10,082 nt of DNA from a virus (Duplodnaviria; Heunggongvirae; Uroviricota; Caudoviricetes). This document shows, piece by piece, positions 1 to 10,082 of the stretch (the stretch's first letter is position 1; the number at the start of each line of letters is the position of its first letter). The position numbers and the translations under genes were made by a program. The stretch is from the IMG/VR virus record IMGVR_UViG_2541047688_000002, one strand, 5' to 3'. The notes beneath the pieces were generated by a model. It searched no databases. It was not told the origin of the DNA and saw only the letters and a program-made list of their open reading frames with translations.

Positions 1-905
1 GTCCACATGCCCGTGTTTTCACAGATCCACCGCCCGTTACTCTGGTCAAGCTCAGACTGATGGATCACACAGCCATGATGCTCACAAAGGTAGAAAACAC
101 TTTCTGGCTTATTCTTCTCCCACTTAAGACCGAAAGGCGAGGCATCATCGCCAAATTTCAGATACTGCTCCTCCCCACAGTGCGGACAGGGCACATAAAA
201 ACGCATGAAGTGTGCCGACTCGTTAGCGGCTTTTTCGATCTGGCAGGAGCCTTTGATTTTAGGCGTCGAGCCGCGAATGGATTTTGGCCATACAGAGCCC
301 TCAATACGTTTATCCCCCAGCAGGGTTGGCGAACCCTCTTTTTCAACATCCGGTTCGAACGAGGAAAGCTCGTCATAACAGACCACATCCACGGATTTTT
401 CACGGTAGTTTTTTGCTGCCGCACCACCCAGACACCAGAACCCCACACCGGAGGAAAAACGCTTCAGGGTGAGCGTATTATCGCGGTGTTTTCTTCCGAA
501 CCATGGAGCCAGCTCCAGCAATGCAGGAACATCCCTTATCGTTGGCTCAACATGAGATTTCATAAAATCTTCAGCAGCTGAGTCCGTGGGCTGAAAAAGA
601 AGGCTGTTGCGTGATTTATGCTCAATAAAATAAGCCTCCACTCCCAGCAACATCTTTGTATAACCAACACGGGCAGATTTAATCAGGTTAACCGTGCGAA
701 TCAGATCGTTGCCCATACAGTTCATGATGCCAACCTGAAACGGCAGTGTTTCCCATCGCCCCGGGGTATAAGACGACTCTTTAGGAAGGTAATAATGTTT
801 ATTGGCCCACTGAACTGTCGTCAGTGGAACAGGAATAATGAGAGATAAAAGCCCTGTAGCTATCGCACCGGCTGCATTAGCTGCCTTCTGCGCGTCTGAA
901 ATCAT
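1..905 (-). CDS. A: Terminase large subunit (lambda gpA-like), N-terminal ~301 codons; CDS continues past the window start
   Basis: Minus-strand frame reads continuously from ATG (revcomp of 903-905) to position 1: [13 protein letters not shown]...[27 protein letters not shown]...[35 protein letters not shown]. These match lambda gpA as recalled (e.g. [44 protein letters not shown]). The ATG lies 26 nt upstream of the Nu1 stop, the same overlap as in lambda. Absent from the ORF track because it runs off the window. Confidence 0.9.
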
Positions 906-1425
906 CGATCCACCCGCCCACGTTTTCACCGGCCTTAGCTGCAACATTGGAGGCTTTCGCGATTTCAGTTTTCACCACATCAAGGTGTGATGGTGAAATG
1001 TCCGGATATTTACGCTGTAATGTCAACGGCACACGCACAAGTATCCCCGAAATCTCCTGTGCCACACGTTGCAGAATGAAGGTAAACAGTTCAGTTTCCA
1101 GCACTACTCCGTCTTCACGGGCATTTTTCAGTTCCTGCGCATCTGCCTGCGCTTTTGTGAGCCGGTAGCGTTCATAGTCAATGGTGCCGGGTTGTAAATC
1201 TGACTCCGCTGCCGCACGCAAATCGTCCAGTTCTTTGCGGAGCTTTTCGTTTTCGATATCAGTTTCCCTCTGCGCATACCACTGAATTGCCATGGCAGTA
1301 TCAAATACAGATTCAATGCCCTTACTGCCTTTGGAGACGCAAGGGAGCCCCTGAGACTGCCAGCGTTCAATCGTCCGCGGGTCCACGTTGAAAATTTCGG
1401 CAAGCCTCTTTTTATTAACCTTCAT
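877..1425 (-). CDS. nu1: Terminase small subunit (lambda Nu1-like; nohD/nohB-type)
   Basis: ORF-track protein [29 protein letters not shown]...[29 protein letters not shown] closely parallels lambda Nu1 (MEVNKKQLADIFGASIRTIQNWQEQGMP...[28 protein letters not shown]). ATG at 1423-1425 (revcomp); sits between cos and gpA. Confidence 0.9.
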
Positions 1426-1625
1426 GAAAACAACCCATTATCAAATACAAGGCCCGACATGAAAACGCCAGAAAAAGGCATTTTCGGACACTTTCATGTC
1501 GGACCTTTACGGATGCAATATTAAAAAAAACAAAAAGTTATATTCGAGAAGTACCGACACGATTTTCCCTGAAAAATTTTCATAAATAGTGAAAAACCGC
1601 GAGGTCGCCGCCCCGTAACCTGTTG
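1426..1625 (-). other. cos DNA-packaging site: cosB (1426-1591), cosN 12-nt cohesive-end sequence (1592-1603), cosQ side (1604-1625)
   Basis: Revcomp of 1592-1603 is GGGCGGCGACCT, the lambda cohesive-end sequence. The adjacent minus-strand sequence GGGCGGCGACCTCGCGGTTTTTCACTATTTATGAAAATTTT matches the lambda left end as recalled. Revcomp of 1604-1612 is CAGGTTACG, as at the lambda right end. cosB holds inverted 11-bp repeats CCGACATGAAA (1454-1464) / TTTCATGTCGG (1493-1503) and an A-tract at 1524-1531, consistent with Nu1 R-sites and an IHF bend. Confidence 0.8.
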
Positions 1626-1761
1626 GATCGACGGAAAGGACCCGAAAACGAGAATAATTATCACTTACAGCAAGAATCGAATCTGATCTATTATGGTGCT
1701 TGCTATTATGTGCCGGCACAAGTGCGTCGTTTACCGTCATTTCACACAGAGGCATCATCAA

Positions 1762-2013
1762 ATGAAAATCAGAAATATTCTCGCTATCTCCCTTGCGACA
1801 TCATCCTTCAGTTGCCTGGCATTTAAATCCTCGCCCAATGTGCTACCAGGACCAACGAATCAACTAACTGCGGTAGAAAGTAAAATTATCGGACATTTTT
1901 ATGCCCCACACAGTACATTACCCGGAACAACCATCACAGGGACATGTGACGCCTCCCCCGTCCCGGGATGCACCTGTCCGTTTTGTACTATGCTGCGTAG
2001 CCAAAACCGATAA
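1762..2013 (+). CDS. Hypothetical small secreted protein (83 aa) with a Cys-rich C-terminus
   Basis: ATG at 1762 with AGAGG 10 nt upstream. N-terminus MKIRNILAISLATSSFSCLA looks like a signal peptide; C-terminus TGTCDASPVPGCTCPFC. Overlaps an alternative frame (1901-2074), so coding status is uncertain. Confidence 0.3.
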   Translation: MKIRNILAISLATSSFSCLAFKSSPNVLPGPTNQLTAVESKIIGHFYAPHSTLPGTTITGTCDASPVPGCTCPFCTMLRSQNR

Positions 2014-2074
2014 CATCCGCATTTACCTGGTATTCCATGATGAGTTCACGCAGCGACTGATAGAGGAAGGAAAG

Positions 2075-2254
2075 ATGGTTAGTAAAAGCAAGGCGCATTG
2101 CCGCCGCATGCTGCAGGCATTGCAACAGACGAGAGCAGGTATTTTTGACCAGTTGGAAAACTGCCAGCATACTTTGCCCGAGTATATCGCCATCTCATCG
2201 GAAACCAGTGCAACTCTTATTCATCGGGTTCCACCAGAGAAAAAGAAGAAATGA
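2075..2254 (+). CDS. Hypothetical 59-aa basic protein
   Basis: Strong SD GAGGAAGGAAAG immediately upstream of ATG 2075. Protein MVSKSKAHCRRMLQALQQTRAGIFDQLENCQHTLPEYIAISSETSATLIHRVPPEKKKK. Stop TGA overlaps the next ATG (ATGA at 2251-2254). Confidence 0.4.
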   Translation: MVSKSKAHCRRMLQALQQTRAGIFDQLENCQHTLPEYIAISSETSATLIHRVPPEKKKK

Positions 2255-2388
2255 ACAGTGAGGCGTTGTGTGGCATACAACGCCTTCTTCCATCATTCCT
2301 CGTCAGCCATGACAAAAATATAACCGCTGGCTCTTTCATTTTTCTCCTGCTTCCAGCCCCTCTCTACCTGGAAGCATCAAGGACGTGA
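2251..2388 (+). CDS. Hypothetical 45-aa hydrophobic peptide, translationally coupled to the upstream ORF
   Basis: ATG 2251-2253 overlaps the upstream stop (ATGA). Translation MNSEALCGIQRLLPSFLVSHDKNITAGSFIFLLLPAPLYLEASRT has a hydrophobic core. Below the ORF-track length cutoff. The 3' end overlaps the convergent lipoprotein gene by 12 nt. Confidence 0.3.
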   Translation: MNSEALCGIQRLLPSFLVSHDKNITAGSFIFLLLPAPLYLEASRT

Positions 2389-2703
2389 CGGCGTAAAGAT
2401 AAATTGTCTCTTCACTCCCTGACAGGGGCGATTCTTTTCAAATCGCCATTTCGCCATGGCCTTCACCACTTCATCACGAAACAAATTATGAGGCTCTGAG
2501 CGGAGAAAAACGATCCGTGTCACAGTCCCATCAGCACCAATATCGAACTTAACCTCAACCAGCCCCTTGATATAATTTGCTGCAGCATATTCCGGATATC
2601 GTGGATACACCGTCACTAATTGCCGGGGCTCATCAGCTTTTTGCTGCGAGCATCCCACTGCCAGGACAGATAACAGAAAAAGTAGTAAAAGGCGTCTTTT
2701 CAT
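2377..2703 (-). CDS. Prophage lipoprotein with a TonB C-terminal-domain fold (candidate TonB-CTD decoy); start at internal Met 19 of the track ORF
   Basis: ATG at 2701-2703 (revcomp) with AGGA 6 nt upstream. Signal peptide plus lipobox MKRRLLLLFLLSVLAVG|CSQQ (Ser at +2). Mature region YPRYPEYAAANYIKGLVEVKFDIGADGTVTRIVFLRSEPHNLFRDEVVKAMAKWRFE aligns with the E. coli TonB C-terminal domain as recalled ([54 protein letters not shown]). Confidence 0.75.
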   Translation of the reverse strand: MKRRLLLLFLLSVLAVGCSQQKADEPRQLVTVYPRYPEYAAANYIKGLVEVKFDIGADGTVTRIVFLRSEPHNLFRDEVVKAMAKWRFEKNRPCQGVKRQFIFTPSRP

Positions 2704-3183
2704 TTTTATTCCTACGGGTCTTATTCTGACAATATATCCTGTGTTCCAGACTGCCACATCACCACATCCTGTGCCATTATCTGACTCACATTACATACAT
2801 CGCATCGGGATACAGTAGTAGCACTTTCTGTAATACAGCTTCCTGTTTCTTCCACCATCGCACCGGGATAAACCCGCGAATCATTAACGCGGTAAAAACC
2901 CGGTGTGCATCGTTTTTAATTATTCCCGCACACTCACGCAGAAGGAATTCCCCGTCGGGCTACGGTCATGGTTAATGCGGGAATACGGCGACGATACAGC
3001 GCAGCTAAAAGGGTAATGGACGGATAGACCGGTTTATTTCATTCCACAGGATTCTGAGTGTCCCCAACTTCCTCCAATAGTCTGAGCCCACCTGTGTAGT
3101 TTTAATTTTCATCAATCCATTTAACTATCGTTTAATTGTTGTCACATAGGATTCTGCCGTTTTTAACAATGCAGGATAATAAG

Positions 3184-3477
3184 ATGAAAAAAATGTTGTT
3201 TTCTGCCGCTCTGGCAATGCTTATTACAGGATGTGCTCAACAGACGTTTACTGTTGGAAACAAACCTACAGCAGTAACACCAAAGGAAACCATCACCCAT
3301 CATTTCTTCGTTTCGGGAATTGGGCAGAAGAAAACTGTCGATGCAGCAAAAATTTGTGGTGGTGCAGAAAATGTTGTTAAAACAGAAACCCAGCAAACAT
3401 TCGTAAATGGATTGCTCGGTTTTATTACTTTAGGCATTTATACTCCGCTGGAAGCGCGTGTGTATTGCTCACAATAA
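3184..3477 (+). CDS. bor: Bor outer-membrane lipoprotein (serum-resistance lysogenic conversion protein)
   Basis: MKKMLFSAALAMLITGCAQQTFTVGNKPTAVTPKETITHHFFVSGIGQKKTVDAAKICGGAENVVKTETQQTFVNGLLGFITLGIYTPLEARVYCSQ is near-identical to lambda Bor as recalled. Lipobox LITGC; AGGA 7 nt upstream of ATG 3184. The track ORF begins further upstream at 3136. Confidence 0.9.
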   Translation: MKKMLFSAALAMLITGCAQQTFTVGNKPTAVTPKETITHHFFVSGIGQKKTVDAAKICGGAENVVKTETQQTFVNGLLGFITLGIYTPLEARVYCSQ

Positions 3478-3488
3478 TTGCATGAGTT

Positions 3489-3504
3489 GCCCATCGATAT
3501 GGGC
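3489..3504. other. Short palindrome GCCCATcgatATGGGC between the convergent bor and Rz 3' ends
   Basis: Perfect 6-bp stem with a 4-nt loop seen directly in the sequence; no adjacent T-tract, so terminator function is uncertain. Confidence 0.25.
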
Positions 3505-3508
3505 AGCT

Positions 3509-3970
3509 CTATCTGCACTGCTCATTAATATACTTCTGGGTTCCTTCCAGTTGTTTTTGCATAGTGATCAGCCTCTCTCTGAGGGTGAAATAATCCCGTT
3601 CAGCGGTGTCTGCCAGTCGGGGGGAGGCTGCATTATCCACGCCGGAGGCGGTGGTGGCTTCACGCACTGACTGACAGACTGCTTTGATGTGCAACCGACG
3701 ACGACCAGCGGCAACATCATCACGCAGAGCATCATTTTCAGCTTTCGCATCAGCTAACTCCTTCGTGTATTTTGCATCGAGCGCAGCAACATCACGCTGA
3801 CGCATCTGTATGTCAGTAATTGCCGCGTTCGCCAGCGTCAGTTCTCTGGCATTTTTGTCGCGCTGGGCTTTGTAGGTAATGGCGTTATCACGGTAATGAT
3901 TAACAGCCCATGACAGGCAGACGATGATGCAGATAACCAGAGCGGAGATAATCGCGGTTACTCTGTTCAT
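3509..3970 (-). CDS. Rz: Rz i-spanin (inner-membrane spanin subunit)
   Basis: [53 protein letters not shown]... matches lambda Rz as recalled. ATG (3968-3970 revcomp) overlaps the R stop as ATGA. The track ORF starts 4 codons earlier at a GTG. Confidence 0.9.
3568..3750 (-). CDS. Rz1: Rz1 o-spanin (outer-membrane lipoprotein) embedded in the +1 frame of Rz
   Basis: [60 protein letters not shown] has a lipobox VVGC and a proline-rich mature part; it matches lambda Rz1 as recalled and lies entirely inside Rz. Confidence 0.85.
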
Positions 3971-4464
3971 TGCTGACCCCACAAACAGATTTCACGCTCA
4001 ATCTCACGACGAGTCATGAGACCTTTCCATTGCTTACCGCCAGCATATGTCCAGCGACGTAGCTGATCACATGCGCCTTTGATATCGCCCTGGTTTATTT
4101 TGCGAAGAAGCGTCGATGTTCTGAAATTGCCAGCACCCACGTTGTAAACGAATGAGTAAAGAGCGCCGCGCATTGTTTCCGGTATATCGACTTTGATGTA
4201 CGGGTTAATTTGTCTGGCGACCGTGGCAAGGTCTTTATTCAGGAGGGCTTTGCATTCTGCTTTGGTATACGTTTTACCGAGCATGATGTCTTTTCCTGTA
4301 TGCCCGTGACATACAGTCCATACACCAACAATATCTTTGTATGGTATGTAGCTGACACCTTCCAGACCATCGTTACCACTTGGGCCAGTGATTAACACTG
4401 ATGCTATAGCAATTGCTCCGCCACCAATAGCAGCAGCAACGGCTTTTCGTAATGATGGAGGCAT
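3967..4464 (-). CDS. R: SAR endolysin (phage 21 R21-type lysozyme with an N-terminal signal-arrest-release domain)
   Basis: [44 protein letters not shown]... has a Gly/Ala-rich weakly hydrophobic N-terminal SAR segment followed by a lysozyme domain, matching phage 21 R as recalled. The start overlaps the S stop (TAATG). Confidence 0.9.
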
Positions 4465-4679
4465 TATTCACCTCTCGCAGCCTTGCGCTTATCTTCTTTA
4501 ATCTTGAAATAAAGGTTTGTCAGGTACGTCAGCAGGCCAAATACCAGGCTACCCAGCACACCTATTGCCGCCCACTGTGAGGGCGTGACTTTATCGAGCA
4601 ACTGTAAAAACCAGTACCCGGCACTACCTGCTGAGGTACCATAGGCGACACCCGTTGTTAACTTATCCATGGATTTCAT
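4464..4679 (-). CDS. S: Pinholin (phage 21 S21-type holin, class II, dual start)
   Basis: [71 protein letters not shown] has two transmembrane segments and a dual-start motif (Met1 and Met4), matching S21 as recalled. Confidence 0.9.
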
Positions 4680-4808
4680 AACCCCACCTCGCAGACAAAG
4701 CGGGTGTAAATTAAGGGGATACTACGTATCGCAATAAAGGCAGAAACGTAACAGATTCGGAGTCAGTGAATAACTCAGGTATTGGGTTATCAGCTAATAT
4801 CGAGACTC

Positions 4809-4842
4809 AAAAAATGGAAAAACCCGCTCGACGGCGGGTTTA
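4809..4842 (-). terminator. Putative intrinsic terminator (hairpin CCCGC-tcgacg-GCGGG flanked by an A-run and a T-run), stronger for the minus strand
   Basis: Stem 4823-4827 / 4834-4838. On the minus strand the stem is followed by UUUCCAUUUUUUG (revcomp of 4805-4820); on the plus strand only TTTA follows. Lies upstream of S on the late strand. Confidence 0.45.
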
Positions 4843-5267
4843 AGCTGTGTGACGAAGTAACCACTCTTAACAGCATAACCAATTTTTTACGTACGTAAAC
4901 TACTAAATGATATTTGTGAGAATGCCACCGAGTGTTCAAAACACCACCACAAATGCATAAGAAAACTTCAACAAATAACCAGTTAATAATTTCCGATGTT
5001 ATTTTTAGTTTGTTTAAATTAAGCTAAAGAATTATAGAGCACTTATAAATAAGTGCCATTAATATAAATTAGCTAATAGATTTATTTTTGTTCAGACAAG
5101 AGCCATGAATAGGATTAGATAGAAAAGGTTCAGATAAAAATAGAGATCTACTTCACAAATTAAATGAGAAACTAAAACTTACATCTTGAAATAATCACAT
5201 TGATTAGATGAATATTTATCGCGCAGTGACATCATTTTTTAATAAAAGTTCAAAAAAAGGGCGTACA

Positions 5268-6350
5268 ATGAAAAAATTAACAGTGGCAATTTCTGCTGTA
5301 GCTGCATCAGTACTGATGGCGATGTCTGCTCAGGCAGCTGAAATTTATAATAAAGACAGTAACAAGCTGGATCTATACGGGAAAGTTAATGCCAAGCACT
5401 ACTTCTCCTCTAATGATGCAGATGATGGTGATACTACTTATGCCCGTCTTGGCTTCAAAGGTGAAACCCAAATCAACGATCAACTGACTGGTTTCGGTCA
5501 GTGGGAATATGAATTCAAAGGCAACCGTGCTGAATCTCAAGGTTCTTCCAAAGACAAAACCCGTCTTGCATTTGCAGGCCTGAAATTTGGTGATTACGGC
5601 TCAATCGATTACGGCCGTAACTACGGTGTAGCATACGACATCGGTGCGTGGACTGACGTTCTGCCAGAATTCGGTGGTGATACCTGGACCCAAACAGATG
5701 TGTTCATGACTGGTCGCACTACTGGTGTTGCAACTTATCGTAACAACGACTTCTTTGGTCTGGTCGATGGCCTGAACTTTGCTGCTCAGTATCAGGGTAA
5801 AAATGACCGCACTGACGTAACTGAAGCCAATGGTGATGGTTTCGGTTTCTCCACTACTTATGAGTATGAAGGATTCGGCGTGGGTGCAACCTATGCTAAA
5901 TCAGATCGCACTGACGGTCAGGTCGCCTATGGTAAGAGCAAATTCAATGCCTCCGGCAAAAATGCGGAAGTATGGGCTGCAGGCCTGAAATATGATGCGA
6001 ACAATATCTATCTGGCTACCACATATTCTGAAACTCAGAATATGACCGTTTTTGGTAATAACCATATTGCAAACAAAGCACAAAACTTTGAAGCAGTAGC
6101 ACAATATCAGTTTGACTTCGGTCTGCGTCCATCTGTTGCTTACCTTCAGTCAAAAGGTAAAGACCTTGGTGTTCATGGTGACCGAGACTTAGTCAAGTAT
6201 GTCGATGTCGGTGCTACTTACTACTTTAATAAAAACATGTCCACTTTTGTTGATTACAAAATCAACTTAATTGACGATAGTAAGTTTACCAAAACAGCTG
6301 GTATTGATACCGACGACATCGTCGCTGTAGGTCTGGTTTATCAGTTCTAA
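5268..6350 (+). CDS. nmpC: General diffusion porin of the OmpC/OmpF/PhoE family, prophage-encoded (NmpC / Lc-type)
   Basis: Signal peptide [23 protein letters not shown]|AEIYNK; porin hallmarks ([17 protein letters not shown]..., C-terminal VAVGLVYQF ending in Phe). Position between Q and S matches nmpC in DLP12 and lc in PA-2. The track ORF begins at 5208, but 5268 gives a proper signal peptide and an AAGGG SD. Confidence 0.9.
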
Positions 6351-6361
6351 TCTGACTTACG

Positions 6362-6401
6362 AAAAAGATATGTTGCGGGAGGCTTTGCCTCCGCAACATA
6401 T
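6362..6401 (-). terminator. Putative tR'-like intrinsic terminator for the late (minus-strand) transcript
   Basis: Imperfect 14-15-bp inverted repeat ATATGTTGCGGGAGG / CCTCCGCAACATAT (6368-6401). On the minus strand it is followed by CUUUUUCG (revcomp of 6360-6367). It ends about 180 nt downstream of the Q stop, comparable to the lambda pR'-tR' distance. Confidence 0.5.
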
Positions 6402-6538
6402 AAGTGGAGCCCTCAAGCCACTTCCTTTAGAAGCACTACCTTGCTTCTTACTATATAAACCTTCTGTTATATATTACCCTTTATTTTGGGGGCGTTTCCA
6501 CGCCCCATTTTTAATAACTTTTAGTAAACAATTGCATA
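6402..6538 (-). promoter_or_regulatory. Predicted late promoter pR' / qut region downstream of Q (exact -35/-10 not resolved)
   Basis: Positional inference from lambdoid late-operon architecture (Q, then pR'/qut, then tR'). AT-rich with several TATAAT-like hexamers on the minus strand (TATTAA, TAATAT, TATAGT); no confident -35/-10 pairing could be made by eye. Confidence 0.35.
6489..6512 (+). terminator. Putative intrinsic terminator for the porin transcript
   Basis: GGGGCGT-ttcc-ACGCCCC, a 7-bp GC-rich stem (6489-6506), followed by ATTTTT on the plus strand; about 140 nt downstream of the porin stop. Confidence 0.5.
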
Positions 6539-6922
6539 TCAATTAGAATTATTAGCAACGATATCCATATCTAACCGGATATCTAATGCCATTAACATCC
6601 CTTCAATTATGCCCTCAGCCTTCTGTAACCTTTTCCCGATATAACCATCCGAGCAGCAATGCTTACTTGCCAGTGACATGAATGTCATACCACATACATA
6701 ATAATCTACTAATAAATCGTGTAAATCGCTGTTGTTCTTTTTCAGACGGGCCATGCACCCGCAAATGATCATCGCGTCATCGTCACAACATTGCGGGCGA
6801 GATTTTACTTTTGAAGGAATTAATCCCTTAAAACCGGCGGCAATGGACGACCAGGTCACATCTTCATGATTATTAGCCGCCCACGCCCCCCAACGCTCAA
6901 GAACCATCTGAATATCACGCAT
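6539..6922 (-). CDS. Q: Late-gene antiterminator Q (QuuD / phage 21-82 type)
   Basis: [62 protein letters not shown]... matches DLP12 QuuD as recalled, with a Cys-rich zinc-binding region. ATG at 6920-6922 (revcomp); the track start 5 codons upstream is a TTG. Confidence 0.85.
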
Positions 6923-7007
6923 CAACTTACTCCACAAAAATCAGACCAGAACGCCAATTACAAGCAAAAATCAACAAAACAGTATTAGTTGATTGTTATC
7001 TCTGACT

Positions 7008-7148
7008 TCATACTCCTGTTCCTGTCAGGGTTTTGGCGTAATTCTTCAGTATTCGGTAATCGGTCAAAACAGAACCGAGGAAACGATATAAGCGCAGACG
7101 CCCCCAGCGGTGGCGAAGAAGTTCTGCCATATTAAACTCAAACATCAT
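7008..7148 (-). CDS. ylcG: YlcG-like small protein (46 aa) of the lambdoid nin region
   Basis: Translation MMFEFNMAELLRHRWGRLRLYRFLGSVLTDYRILKNYAKTLTGTGV matches DLP12 YlcG as recalled; its start overlaps the rusA stop. Below the ORF-track length cutoff. Confidence 0.6.
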   Translation of the reverse strand: MMFEFNMAELLRHRWGRLRLYRFLGSVLTDYRILKNYAKTLTGTGV

Positions 7149-7196
7149 TCATTCCCCATTTCGGTGATGGTCAGTTCCAGCCTCCCACCTTTGGTA
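7145..7196 (-). pseudogene. rusA: 3' remnant of rusA (Holliday-junction resolvase), last 16 codons only, truncated by IS911
   Basis: Minus-strand translation immediately left of the IS911 end is TKGGRLELTITEMGNE-stop, matching the RusA C-terminus as recalled. The rest of the gene is not found on the other side of the IS. Confidence 0.6.
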
Positions 7197-7232
7197 TGAA
7201 GTGGTTTACTGAATTTGGCCACCTGAACAGAG
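7197..7232 (+). repeat. IS911 left terminal inverted repeat (IRL)
   Basis: Begins TGAAGTGG; pairs with the right end at 8411-8446. Confidence 0.8.
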
Positions 7233-7268
7233 GTGATATGCTCACCTCAGAACAACACAGGTGCCATA

Positions 7269-8446
<1,178 letters not shown>

Positions 8447-8663
8447 CAACGCCGTTAAGCACATAGCTAACGCAAAACAACAGGATGTAATACATCCAGT
8501 AATGAGGAAGGATTTCTGGACTATGCAGGTTTATCCATTCTTTTACGCTTACCGGCATAACAATAATCAATATGATCAGGATGATTAGCATATGAATCAA
8601 CTGTTTAAGTGTCATTCCTTGCAGGAAAAAATGCATTAGTTCCTGCCACCATGAGTTGTTCAT
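8447..8663 (-). pseudogene. 5' portion (about 72 codons) of a small membrane-protein gene, apparently truncated by the IS911 right end
   Basis: MNNSWWQELMHFFLQGMTLKQLIHMLIILIILIIVMPVSVKEWINLHSPEILPHYWMYYILLFCVSYVLNGVVKW has two hydrophobic segments. The track ORF (8292-8663) continues into IS911 only by chance. Weak RBS. Confidence 0.3.
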
Positions 8664-8806
8664 CGGCGTTTCTCTTTTGCTCTCTGTAGGGGTGAATAGA
8701 GTTTATCCGATTTCTCGTTGTAGGGGTACACGAGAACCACCGAGCCTGATGTGGTTAAAAGACAGGCACAATCTTTACTACCGCAATCCACTATTTAAGG
8801 TGATAT

Positions 8807-8893
8807 ATGGAAGAAGAATTTGAAGAGTTCGAAGAGCATCCTCAAGATGTGATGGAACAATACCAGGACTATCCGTATGACTACGACTATTGA
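8807..8893 (+). CDS. Hypothetical 28-aa highly acidic, aromatic-rich peptide
   Basis: Strong SD AAGGTG 5 nt upstream of ATG 8807. Translation MEEEFEEFEEHPQDVMEQYQDYPYDYDY. Overlaps the start of the next ORF by 17 nt. Below the ORF-track cutoff. Confidence 0.35.
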   Translation: MEEEFEEFEEHPQDVMEQYQDYPYDYDY

Positions 8894-9077
8894 TACAAAT
8901 CAATGGTGTGGACAATTCAAACGATGCAATGGATGCAAGCTGCAATCGGAATGCATGGTTAAGCCTGAAGAAATGTTTCCTGTAATGGAAGATGGGAAAT
9001 ATGTCGATAAATGGGCAATACGAACGACGGCAATGATTGCCAGAGAACTTGGTAAACAGAACAACAAAGCTGCCTGA
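8877..9077 (+). CDS. Hypothetical 66-aa Cys-rich protein (possible zinc-ribbon)
   Basis: MTTTIDTNQWCGQFKRCNGCKLQSECMVKPEEMFPVMEDGKYVDKWAIRTTAMIARELGKQNNKAA contains C-x5-C-x2-C-x5-C. The start lies inside the upstream acidic-peptide ORF, suggesting coupling. Confidence 0.45.
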   Translation: MTTTIDTNQWCGQFKRCNGCKLQSECMVKPEEMFPVMEDGKYVDKWAIRTTAMIARELGKQNNKAA

Positions 9078-9213
9078 TAGTGGCCTTTATTTTTGGCATA
9101 AATAACAGAATAAACACTGCACTGTGTATTCATTCCAACGAGTGAATACACGGAGCAATGTCGCTCGTAACTAAACAGGAGCCGACTTGTTCTGATTATT
9201 GGAAATCTTCTTT

Positions 9214-9239
9214 GCCCTCCAGTGTGAGGGCGATTTTTT
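9214..9239 (+). terminator. Intrinsic terminator / attenuator hairpin
   Basis: GCCCTC-cagtgt-GAGGGC (9214-9231) followed by GA then TTTTTT (9234-9239). Confidence 0.5.
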
Positions 9240-9259
9240 ATCTATGAGGATATGAATAG

Positions 9260-9628
9260 ATGTCAAACATCAAAAAATACATCATTGATTACGACTGGAA
9301 AGCATCAATAGAAATTGAAATTGACCATGACGTAATGACAGAGGAAAAACTTCACCAGATTAATAATTTCTGGTCAGACTCTGAATACCGACTCAATAAA
9401 CACGGCTCTGTATTAAATGCTGTATTAATCATGCTGGCGCAACATGCTCTGCTTATAGCAATTTCAAGCGACTTAAATGCATATGGTGTTGTGTGTGAGT
9501 TCGACTGGAATGATGGAAATGGTCAGGAAGGATGGCCTCCAATGGATGGTAGTGAAGGAATAAGAATTACCGATATCGATACATCAGGAATATTTGATTC
9601 AGATGATATGACTATCAAGGCCGCCTGA
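9260..9628 (+). CDS. Hypothetical 122-aa strongly acidic protein
   Basis: GAGGA 9 nt upstream of ATG 9260. About 22 Asp/Glu against about 8 Lys/Arg, with a C-terminal region rich in D/G/S (DWNDGNGQEGWPPMDGSEGIRITDIDTSGIFDSDDM). No family recognised from memory. Confidence 0.45.
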   Translation: MSNIKKYIIDYDWKASIEIEIDHDVMTEEKLHQINNFWSDSEYRLNKHGSVLNAVLIMLAQHALLIAISSDLNAYGVVCEFDWNDGNGQEGWPPMDGSEGIRITDIDTSGIFDSDDMTIKAA

Positions 9629-9662
9629 GCGCGGCGTTACCGCATACCAATTACGCTTCACT

Positions 9663-10082
<420 letters not shown>

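Follow-up and report, generated by a model that had tools for sequence, protein, structure and literature searches.

The stretch of DNA analysed here (10,082 nucleotides, hereafter the window) carries near its first position a cos site and two adjoining terminase genes, which raises the question of whose packaging specificity this module has and whether the element that carries it could still be packaged. An earlier note, made from the sequence alone, had described a lambda-type cos site at a prophage end that looks packaging-competent. We put the probability at about 0.9 that window 1–1643 (minus strand) instead belongs to a lambdoid prophage resembling phage 21 and forms its packaging module, apparently competent in cis and in trans for phage 21 specificity only, while the prophage itself is grounded. 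The module comprises cosQ, cosN, I2 and a 21-type cosB, followed by terminase gene 1 and, from terminase gene 2, the half that encodes the ATPase domain, all on the minus strand.

A cos site of the phage 21 type

The 12-nt cohesive end GGGCGGCGACCT (1613–1602, minus strand) has one exact match in the window and equals both bases 1–12 of phage 21 and the lambda end (12/12), as the earlier note had reported. The CG nick dinucleotides flanking it complete cosN (CGGGGCGGCGACCTCG, 1615–1600, minus strand), which is identical in phage 21 and lambda, and at the conserved spacing from cosN lies the cosQ heptamer GGGTCCT (1637–1643, minus strand), the packaging-termination subsite, whose sequence and spacing are those of the annotated phage 21 cosQ (OL657228, 42902–42908) and of lambda. 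CosQ falls just beyond the interval 1–1625 considered in the earlier note. The spacer I2 between cosN and cosB (1565–1601, minus strand) is 100% identical to phage 21 and agrees with lambda at 30 of 37 positions.

Only these parts, i.e. the cohesive end, the cosQ–cosN flank and I2, are close to lambda. The claim that cosN and cosB match lambda closely therefore holds for the former and fails for cosB (1448–1564, minus strand), in which R3 agrees with lambda at 11 of 16 positions and the following 41 nt at 24. Coordinates within cosB were carried over from the phage 21 annotation through a 100%-identical alignment and place R3 at 1564–1549, the IHF site I1 (TAACTTTTTGTTT) at 1540–1528, an inverted R2 at 1507–1492 and R1 at 1464–1448 (all given for the minus strand). 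The R-box core CRTGTCGG occurs three times in the whole window, each time within cosB and with the middle copy inverted (1554–1561, minus; 1495–1502, plus; 1454–1461, minus), whereas lambda has CGTTTCC at the corresponding places. Three R boxes with R2 inverted, an IHF site between R3 and R2, and a small terminase gene directly downstream (start at 1425) make up a complex cosB.

Against phage 21 the agreement is complete from cosQ to the gene 1 start (100% identity). There are no mismatches to OL657228 over window 1349–1763, which spans all annotated cos subsites and the gene 1 ribosome-binding site, and identity from cosN into gene 2 is 99.8% across 1613 nt. Judged by its bases, the cis-acting site is thus sequence-perfect for an experimentally characterised terminase. 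In phage 21 the cut is defined by the ends of the genome, and from the 100% identity of the two cos sites terminase would be expected to cleave at cosN here as well and generate cohesive ends.

The small terminase subunit and packaging specificity

Gene 1, the homologue of lambda Nu1, is complete (877–1425, minus strand; 182 aa; Pfam Phage_Nu1, E = 3.6e-82), in agreement with the earlier note. Plus-strand open reading frames inside 1–1425 (e.g. 60–581) run antisense to the terminase genes and were regarded as spurious. The gene 1 product, gp1, is identical to phage 21 gp1 at 181 of 182 residues, the sole change being A30V, which lies in the wing region of the DNA-binding domain, adjoining the recognition helix. 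Its residues 1–54 likewise match PDB 7lwr, a 54-residue terminase small-subunit chain with Ala at position 30, except at that position. Lambda carries Leu at the aligned position, suggesting that A30V would be tolerated.

All seven distinct phage genomes matched across position 30 (phage 21, PhiR63_2, PhiR57_1, Lambda_4C10, ev017, 1W and 3W) each show a single difference from the window protein, at a residue that is A30 in phage 21 and that we infer to be A30 in the other six from where the partial matches start. With no V30 among them, the V30 allele appears to be known from prophages only. The exact window gp1 is present in 399 blocks of the collection. Of the ten places shown, nine have it followed by an intact 642-aa gp2, and the remaining one, L016, has a gp2 split in the gene calls into open reading frames of 488 and 157 aa. 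The W, portal, protease and major capsid genes are present in all ten of these places, and the decoration-protein gene is called short in one of them (L009, 74 aa versus 115).

From published lambda and phage 21 work, transferred by sequence identity, gp1 dimers would bind the R3, R2 and R1 boxes of cosB and IHF would bend the DNA at I1. This would anchor gp2, which would nick cosN 12 nt apart, and terminase would translocate the DNA in the direction of genes 1 and 2 and the head genes, stopping at the next cosQ plus cosN. Packaging starts at cosN plus cosB and ends at the next cosQ plus cosN, with I2 needed for efficient termination (PMC4669245). Neither the lambda nor the phage 21 terminase packages the other's chromosomes (PMC4669245), so any helper must have gp1 and cosB of the 21 type.

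The R boxes and spacers of cosB and the DNA-binding domain of gp1 indicate phage 21 packaging specificity for the window. Lambda specificity, with a cos/Nu1 module that any lambda-type helper could use for packaging or mobilisation, has next to no probability in our estimation. The cohesive end, cosQ and cosN flanks are indeed identical or nearly so to lambda, the order cos–small subunit–large subunit is lambda's, and a lambda terminase arriving from upstream could still cut here because termination at a downstream cos is independent of cosB type (PMC4669245). Initiation, however, fails for lambda and 21 terminases on each other's cos (PMC4669245), the R boxes lack the lambda motif, and gp1 is only 52.8% identical to Nu1. 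A true lambda-type copy looks different, with the NohD of DLP12 98% identical to Nu1 and accompanied by lambda R boxes. The sequence itself thus already contradicts lambda specificity.

The large terminase subunit and the assembly gap

Gene 2, the homologue of lambda A, is represented in the window by its 5′ 47% (1–905, minus strand; codons 1–301). The frame runs from 905 to 1 with no stop, its 301 residues are identical to phage 21 gp2 (71.8% identity to lambda in the N-terminal half), and it contains the GpA_ATPase domain (PF05876, residues 46–293, E = 1.3e-57) with a Walker A-like KSARVGYTK at residues 76–84. The N-terminus of gpA is hence uninterrupted, as had been noted, and what cuts the gene is a gap rather than a mutation. 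The window is the reverse complement of scaffold KE698919.1, in which a run of 95 Ns follows position 1, and cos lies mid-prophage in integrated relatives; the ‘prophage end’ of the earlier note is in fact the edge of an assembly gap.

The earlier note had proposed looking past this edge for complete gpA and head genes. On KE698919.1, gp2 codons 324–642 are open to the stop and include PF20454 in the part where a C-terminal nuclease domain would lie, while 64 nt are hidden by the N gap and a second N run in source assembly GCA_000456205.1 hides the head genes past gpW codon 36. In the sister chromosome OZ039684.1, which has the same IS architecture and 3 mismatches in the 10,082 nt, gp2 is 642 aa long and is followed by gpW and the start of the portal gene, where the 10-kb flank viewed ends. 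Both terminase genes therefore look intact.

The three differences from the sister, at window 1327, 1337 and 1348, all fall within 22 nt, where the window has an allele common in other prophages and the sister carries the A30 allele; the ten places shown for the window gp1 accordingly belong to other prophages and not to the sister. After the gap the source and sister differ at 9 of 1053 nt (0.85%), a jump in divergence from which scaffold KE698919.1 may join copies from two prophages. The window is bounded on one side by the 95-N gap and on the other by a scaffold end inside an IS, and what is seen could in part be an artefact of a short-read draft, with two paralogous prophage copies assembled into a consensus or chimera over the terminase stretch, whose intactness might then not be that of a single locus. 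We consider this improbable but worth keeping in mind, as the complete sister chromosome has the same junctions and matches the cos region and the rest of the 10 kb exactly or almost so, and a gene-conversion patch would look alike. Moreover, both candidate alleles encode full-length proteins, so that intactness of the module would barely be affected.

An intact right arm and a deleted early region

The right arm (1644–4680, minus strand), defined from Pfam matches and the annotation of relatives, is colinear with phage 21 and runs into cosQ; window 1614–4680 aligns with OL657228 39865–42931 at 98.2% identity over 3067 nt with no gaps. It includes S (4679–4464), R (4464–3967), Rz/Rz1 (3982–3509) and a TonB_C-like gene (2757–2377), all on the minus strand, and bor/iss on the opposite strand (3136–3477). 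Small open reading frames are also found in this arm. Together with a Q that matches Phage_antitermQ (Pfam, E = 6.7e-54), this bears out the earlier description of an intact Q-lysis cassette. A promoter and terminator scan gave fewer promoter-like sites than shuffled controls, with no evident promoter for Q and, ahead of S, a late promoter and a terminator that are no more than tentative; the ‘terminators’ flagged at cosN and R1 were treated as artefacts of symmetry.

The early side is disrupted by an IS, as the earlier note had stated. Mapping onto the undeleted relative PE144 places a complete ISEc52 (1250 bp; 7197–8446, plus strand) at a deletion of about 7.8 kb, with window 7196 corresponding to PE144 (L002) position 20001 and window 8446 to position 12151. 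The flanks of this copy, GTA and CAA, do not form a target duplication, and a second, partial and inverted ISEc52 copy occupies 9663–10082. The genes lost with the deletion are N, cI (the repressor), cro, cII, O, P and the nin genes, and the replication origin inside O was presumably lost with them. With its early control and replication genes deleted, the element, on its gene content, cannot be induced or replicate. Since O, P and the origin are lost, no concatemers would form, and the element has one copy of cos.

Distribution of the module and its maintenance

Relatives of the window prophage sit in icd, a locus described as the phage 21 attachment site (PMC12803456). Among these relatives, PE144 and Nissle 1917 have full sets of head and tail genes, and it is on these two, rather than on the window's own lineage, that head and tail completeness rests. 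The window architecture in one piece was not found in complete RefSeq E. coli genomes. The cos21 region occurs in roughly 630 of the 5426 complete E. coli genomes, which makes it a common module, and one that recombines. The SieB′–IS junction, whose fusion open reading frame led to the source scaffold and the sister chromosome, is shared by just three contigs in the collection, and the two genomes that share the deletion are 99.97% identical; the intact late half most likely reflects a recent deletion.

We also considered that the module is kept because it is used, as a standing packaging and late-gene resource that serves cross-packaging with a co-resident prophage of the same specificity, a cos-island helper function, or in situ cos cutting with packaging of the neighbouring chromosome. 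Three icd prophage lineages (the source strain with its sister, Nissle 1917 and PE144) have an intact late region despite different ISEc52 lesions, and close relatives hold two to five matching places per chromosome. The 22-nt patch of three SNPs and the assembly gaps that begin in gene 2 also hint that the genome contains the module twice. PICIs of strains such as CFT073, moreover, use a lambda-like cosQ/cosN together with a helper small subunit (PMC9026076). Use of the module nonetheless has a low probability in our view, as the early control region around and including N, cI and cro is gone and Q has no evident promoter, leaving no route of expression, and with one cos and no replication nothing would terminate a packaging run. 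The rarity of the deletion and the near-identity of the genomes sharing it imply that recency alone explains the intactness. In addition, Bury et al. report, on data not shown, that neither antibiotic nor heat induced the Nissle prophages (PMC5987069). The same study describes a Nissle ‘prophage 3’, a 39.8-kb non-inducible lambdoid prophage, which fits the icd prophage and may be the same element; it is not relied on here. A literature search for reports of phage deletion in engineered Nissle found nothing specific.

Prospects for mobilisation

Taken as a claim about the module, packaging competence is supported, with a sequence-perfect cos and two terminase genes that look intact; as a claim about the element it is not, given the loss of induction and replication genes and the single cos. 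Mobilisation by a helper lambdoid phage, also suggested earlier, would be restricted to helpers of the 21 type, and the element, with a single cos and no concatemers, is unlikely to be packaged as a whole. Helper packaging of passive prophages ran between two tandem cos sites (PMC4669245). A further suggestion, that the terminase may act on other cos-bearing DNA, would apply only if the late operon were switched on; with the early promoters lost, another phage would have to provide a Q that is compatible.

Helper packaging of the whole element is less plausible than recombination with incoming phages. Two roles are realistic. By recombination the element could pass a working 21-type module of packaging and late genes to lambdoid phages that enter or already share the cell, and it could provide late proteins where a compatible Q acts in trans. 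Grounded copies such as this one may hence plausibly hand functional packaging genes on to new hybrid phages.

There is a slim chance that the grounded prophage is not inert, and that a co-resident or incoming phage with a compatible Q activates cos21 and terminase, with in situ cutting or with supply of, or competition for, terminase. If so, the late genes and adjacent chromosome could be packaged one-directionally after an in situ cut, in a cos-phage analogue of lateral transduction, or else the element could share 21-specific terminase with, or compete for it against, another prophage or an island with a cos site in that cell. Such activation would explain an intact late half across several independently ISEc52-damaged lineages.

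The preferred reading, a phage 21 packaging module in a grounded prophage, is ordinary, well-studied and already understood biology, and beyond its correct annotation the module matters little. The annotation should be corrected in three respects. Its packaging specificity is that of phage 21, not lambda, which decides the helper phages, cosmids and packaging extracts that could be used; the apparent truncation of the large terminase is an assembly gap; and with the immunity and replication genes gone, an intact cos does not confer mobility.

Comparison with known systems

The closest known system is the cos site and terminase genes 1 and 2 of phage 21 (OL657228, M81255, X02501; Feiss laboratory). 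CosQ, cosN, I2, R3, I1, R2, R1 and the gene 1 ribosome-binding site are base-for-base identical, and the likeness extends to both terminase proteins and the lysis-to-cos arm. Unlike phage 21, the window carries V30 in gp1, sits in a deleted, non-inducible prophage, and has a Q, a late-promoter region and a porin gene upstream of S of the DLP12 type in place of the Q21/tRNA region. Lambda shares the architecture, the 12-nt cohesive end, cosQ and much of the N-terminal half of gpA, and the mechanism (small subunit on R boxes, IHF bend, nicking by the large subunit) is taken to be the same, but the R-box sequence of cosB and the small subunit differ and neither terminase initiates packaging on the other's cos.

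The cryptic prophage DLP12 of E. coli K-12 (cos, nohD, aaaD′) is likewise a grounded lambdoid element that keeps cos and a full-length small terminase gene, and rusA-ylcG-quuD-porin-essD-rrrD-rzpD-bor is common to both at 91–97% identity. In contrast to the window, DLP12 has a lambda-type cosB with its Nu1-like NohD, its large terminase is a pseudogene of roughly 100 codons running into tfaD, it has lost its head and tail genes, and IS5 interrupts its porin gene; the window element has a large subunit, and its relatives have head and tail genes. A cosmid or vector origin was rejected, since cosB is of the 21 type and the context is that of a chromosomal prophage.

The cos-rpp modules of PICIs (e.g. 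EcCICFT073) resemble the window in placing a lambda-like cosQ/cosN in a non-autonomous, helper-dependent chromosomal element (PMC9026076). Gram-negative PICIs, however, lack R2, I1 and R1, carry rpp instead of small and large terminase genes, and excise and replicate on induction (PMC9026076). A PICI origin was rejected for the window, which has no rpp; its cosB is complete and of the complex kind, its terminase genes are true members of the Phage_Nu1 and GpA families, and its replication genes are deleted.

The module has phage 21 packaging specificity

When window positions 1-1700 were compared by megablast with the phage collection, the matches were phage 21 (OL657228, M81255, X02501) and several isolated relatives, at 99.6-99.8% identity. 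From 1349 to 1763 every base is identical to phage 21, across cosQ, cosN, the spacer I2, the entire cosB and the first 77 nt of gene 1, which encodes the small terminase subunit (gp1, homologue of lambda Nu1). Carrying the annotation of the phage 21 record over to the window places cosQ (GGGTCCT) at 1643-1637 (minus strand) and, within cosB, R3 at 1564-1549 (minus), the IHF site I1 at 1540-1528 (minus), the inverted R2 at 1507-1492 and R1 at 1464-1448 (minus). The cohesive-end 12-mer GGGCGGCGACCT (1613-1602, minus), within CGGGGCGGCGACCTCG, occurs once in the window. On the same strand the 37-nt I2 separates the cohesive end from cosB, and a ribosome-binding site lies between cosB and a 182-codon ORF. 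The R-box core CRTGTCGG is present in three copies, all within cosB, the middle one inverted. These cos and terminase features are real, far beyond chance.

The earlier note had cosB matching lambda closely, which is wrong. Although the cohesive end agrees with lambda at 12/12 positions and I2 at 30/37, R3 agrees at 11/16 and the following 41 nt at 24/41, and the R boxes read C(A/G)TGTCGG where lambda has CGTTTCC. The proteins divide in the same way: gp1 is identical to phage 21 gp1 at 181/182 residues and 52.8% identical to Nu1, while the N-terminus of the large subunit (gp2, homologue of lambda gpA) is identical to that of phage 21 gp2 and 71.8% identical to gpA. Every testable sequence-level defining feature of a lambda-like complex cos with phage 21 specificity is present, and the lambda-specificity features are absent from the module. 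By its sequence, the packaging module is that of phage 21 and belongs, within the lambda-like complex cos class, to the phage 21 specificity group. The distinction is a functional one: packaging starts at cosN plus cosB and ends at cosQ plus cosN, termination at the downstream cos is independent of cosB type, and the lambda and 21 specificities reside in the TerS-cosB interaction (Feiss et al., PMC4669245). At a coverage of at least 80%, the cos21 region (211-nt query) was found in 630 of 5426 complete E. coli genomes and the 1.7-kb module in 692. The finding falls within textbook lambdoid biology and is already known.

Terminase genes and the assembly gap

The 182-codon small terminase ORF occupies 1425-877 (minus; Pfam Phage_Nu1, E=3.6e-82). 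Its end is overlapped by the large terminase frame, open from 905 to window position 1 (minus), with the gpA ATPase domain at residues 46-293 (Pfam, E=1.3e-57) and a Walker A-like KSARVGYTK at residues 76-84. Reverse-complemented, the window equals exactly the final 10,082 bases of scaffold KE698919.1 (GCA_000456205.1); position 1 adjoins a run of 95 N (locus L007, 10083-10177), and position 10082 falls at the end of the scaffold, within an ISEc52 copy. Both edges of the window are artefacts of assembly, and what had been read as the prophage end is the edge of a gap. Beyond it the scaffold resumes, at a codon boundary, 64 nt further along the sister chromosome OZ039684.1, and gene 2 continues open for 319 codons to its stop, followed by the first 36 codons of gpW, which is cut by a second N run (L007, 11231-11791). 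The sister chromosome, with three mismatches over 10,082 nt and the same IS junctions, has a gp2 of 642 aa followed by gpW and the portal gene. The claims of an intact cosN, gene 1 and 5' portion of gene 2 hold, and no frameshift or truncation was seen in gene 2 as far as its stop; its appearance as an N-terminus only is an artefact of the assembly, in which 64 nt of the gene lie unsequenced.

The three differences from the sister (1327, 1337 and 1348) fall within 22 nt, in codons 26-33 of gene 1, and comprise two synonymous changes and A30V, matching the allele of many other prophage types. Alanine is found at position 30 in phage 21, the sister genome, Nissle 1917, PE144 and the 54-residue terminase small-subunit chain of PDB 7lwr, which equals window gp1 at all other positions; the aligned lambda residue is Leu. 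Phage matches spanning this position, from seven distinct genomes (phage 21, PhiR63_2, PhiR57_1, Lambda_4C10, ev017, 1W and 3W), are each one residue off window gp1. Those starting at residue 34 (4A7, D2) are 100% identical to it, which puts the difference N-terminal to residue 34 and presumably at position 30. V30 is common all the same: the protein with this residue is present in 399 blocks of the protein collection and in no fewer than four distinct prophage backgrounds. Of ten such loci inspected, nine have gp2 next as an intact protein of 642 aa, and in the tenth, L016, gp2 is split between two called ORFs (488 and 157 aa). W, portal, protease and major capsid genes are present in all ten; in L009 the decoration-protein gene is called at 74 aa instead of 115. 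A30V is probably neutral.

The terminase genes of many prophages differ just in how a small set of polymorphic sites is reshuffled, and the 22-nt patch is either gene conversion or a collapsed-repeat consensus. Like the assembly gaps that start in gene 2, the patch is a hint that this genome carries the module twice. Past the gap the source differs from the sister at 9 of 1053 nt, and this jump in divergence, taken with the patch, points to a second prophage with the same module, either as the donor in a gene conversion or as a copy collapsed with this one in the assembly.

Loss of the early region

Mapped on the undeleted PE144 prophage, window 1-7196 is colinear from gene 2 as far as the final 52 nt of rusA. 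There follow a complete ISEc52 of 1250 bp (7197-8446), then sieB', ral and the DUF2528 gene (8446-9665), and a second, inverted and partial ISEc52 (9663-10082), inserted between cIII and DUF2528, that runs into the scaffold end. About 7.8 kb is gone between rusA' and sieB' (PE144 locus L002, 12152-20000), where PE144 carries a LexA-family repressor, cro-like and CII regulators, O and P replication genes, ren and nin genes, and where N and the early promoters presumably also lay. The flanks of the first ISEc52 show no target duplication, consistent with an IS-adjacent deletion. At its edge, ORF 8292-8663 (minus, 123 aa) joins the first 72 sieB codons to another 51 that are read from the end of ISEc52; in a large collection the fusion is found in three contigs only, two from genomes and one from a metagenome, and serves as a lineage marker for the deletion.

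PE144 and Nissle 1917, the nearest relatives among complete RefSeq genomes, carry the prophage in icd with full head and tail gene sets except a tail-fibre fragment. ISEc52 has struck this icd family at different sites in different strains: in Nissle 1917 at a deletion from int' to just before sieB (L019, 10669-11838), and in PE144 between the TonB-like gene and cos (L002, 24891-26140), a copy absent from the window. In the sister genome the second ISEc52 copy is itself split by an IS21-family element (L006, 5750-7719). In strain NC101 a lambdoid prophage at icd encodes, at the cI 3' end, the sRNA svsR, which limits infection by other phages (PMC12803456); if the present prophage belongs to that family, this locus would be lost in the deletion.

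The late side

The earlier note was right to contrast the intact late side with an early side damaged by IS elements. Q (Pfam Phage_antitermQ), the OmpC-like porin, S, R, Rz/Rz1, bor/iss and a TonB_C-like gene are whole, and from S to the right cohesive end the window matches phage 21 gap-free at 98.2% identity. Q and the lysis genes are separated by the intact OmpC/NmpC-like porin gene (5208-6350, plus; Porin_1, E=2e-151), which is encoded on the opposite strand. As in phage 21, the interval from the lysis genes to cos contains two cargo genes, for a Bor/Iss serum-resistance lipoprotein (3136-3477, plus; iss in relatives) and a small protein with a TonB C-terminal domain (2377-2757, minus). 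Just upstream of the holin gene, consensus matches give a candidate promoter (5059-5031, minus) and, about 190 nt on, a strong terminator-like hairpin (4841-4820, minus); tentatively, this would look like a Q-dependent late promoter and terminator, with the porin gene between them and Q.

Between cosQ and the TonB-like gene, the stretch 1762-2013 of a plus-strand ORF (1693-2013) begins like a signal peptide (MKIRNILAISLATSSFSCLAF...) and ends in a Cys-rich tail. Pfam gave no match, and no such ORF is annotated in phage 21, whose small ORFs here lie on the other strand; gene callers call instead an overlapping 117-aa ORF (1901-2254).

Packaging competence and comparison with known elements

The cos site matches phage 21's own in quality and, being identical to it, should be recognised and cut by a 21-specific terminase. 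Of the earlier proposal of a packaging-competent element mobilised by a helper, competence in cis is very likely, and both terminase genes appear intact in the trans sense, allowing for the unsequenced 64 nt and A30V. A helper must, however, have 21 specificity, and mobilisation of the whole element is unlikely. With the repressor, the cro- and CII-type regulators, O and P gone, and presumably N, the early promoters and the origin as well, the element cannot be induced or make concatemers. Q has no evident promoter, and the late operon, since it includes the lysis genes, would normally have to be silent; a promoter and terminator scan gave just the tentative pair upstream of S. Moreover, a packaging run from the single cos has no second cos to end at; helper-packaging experiments used tandem prophages because a second cos is needed to end the run (PMC4669245). 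Most plausibly the module ends up in other lambdoid phages by recombination, which the data fit.

A PICI-type cos-rpp module was rejected for this element. The nearest grounded-prophage comparator is DLP12 of K-12, whose rusA-ylcG-quuD-porin-lysis-bor block is 91-97% identical to the element. DLP12, however, has a lambda-type cosB and a NohD 98% identical to Nu1, its large terminase gene is reduced to a stub of some 100 codons, and its nmpC, the homologue of the intact porin gene in the window, is split by IS5. The element is a much less decayed relative, and its packaging specificity is the other one.
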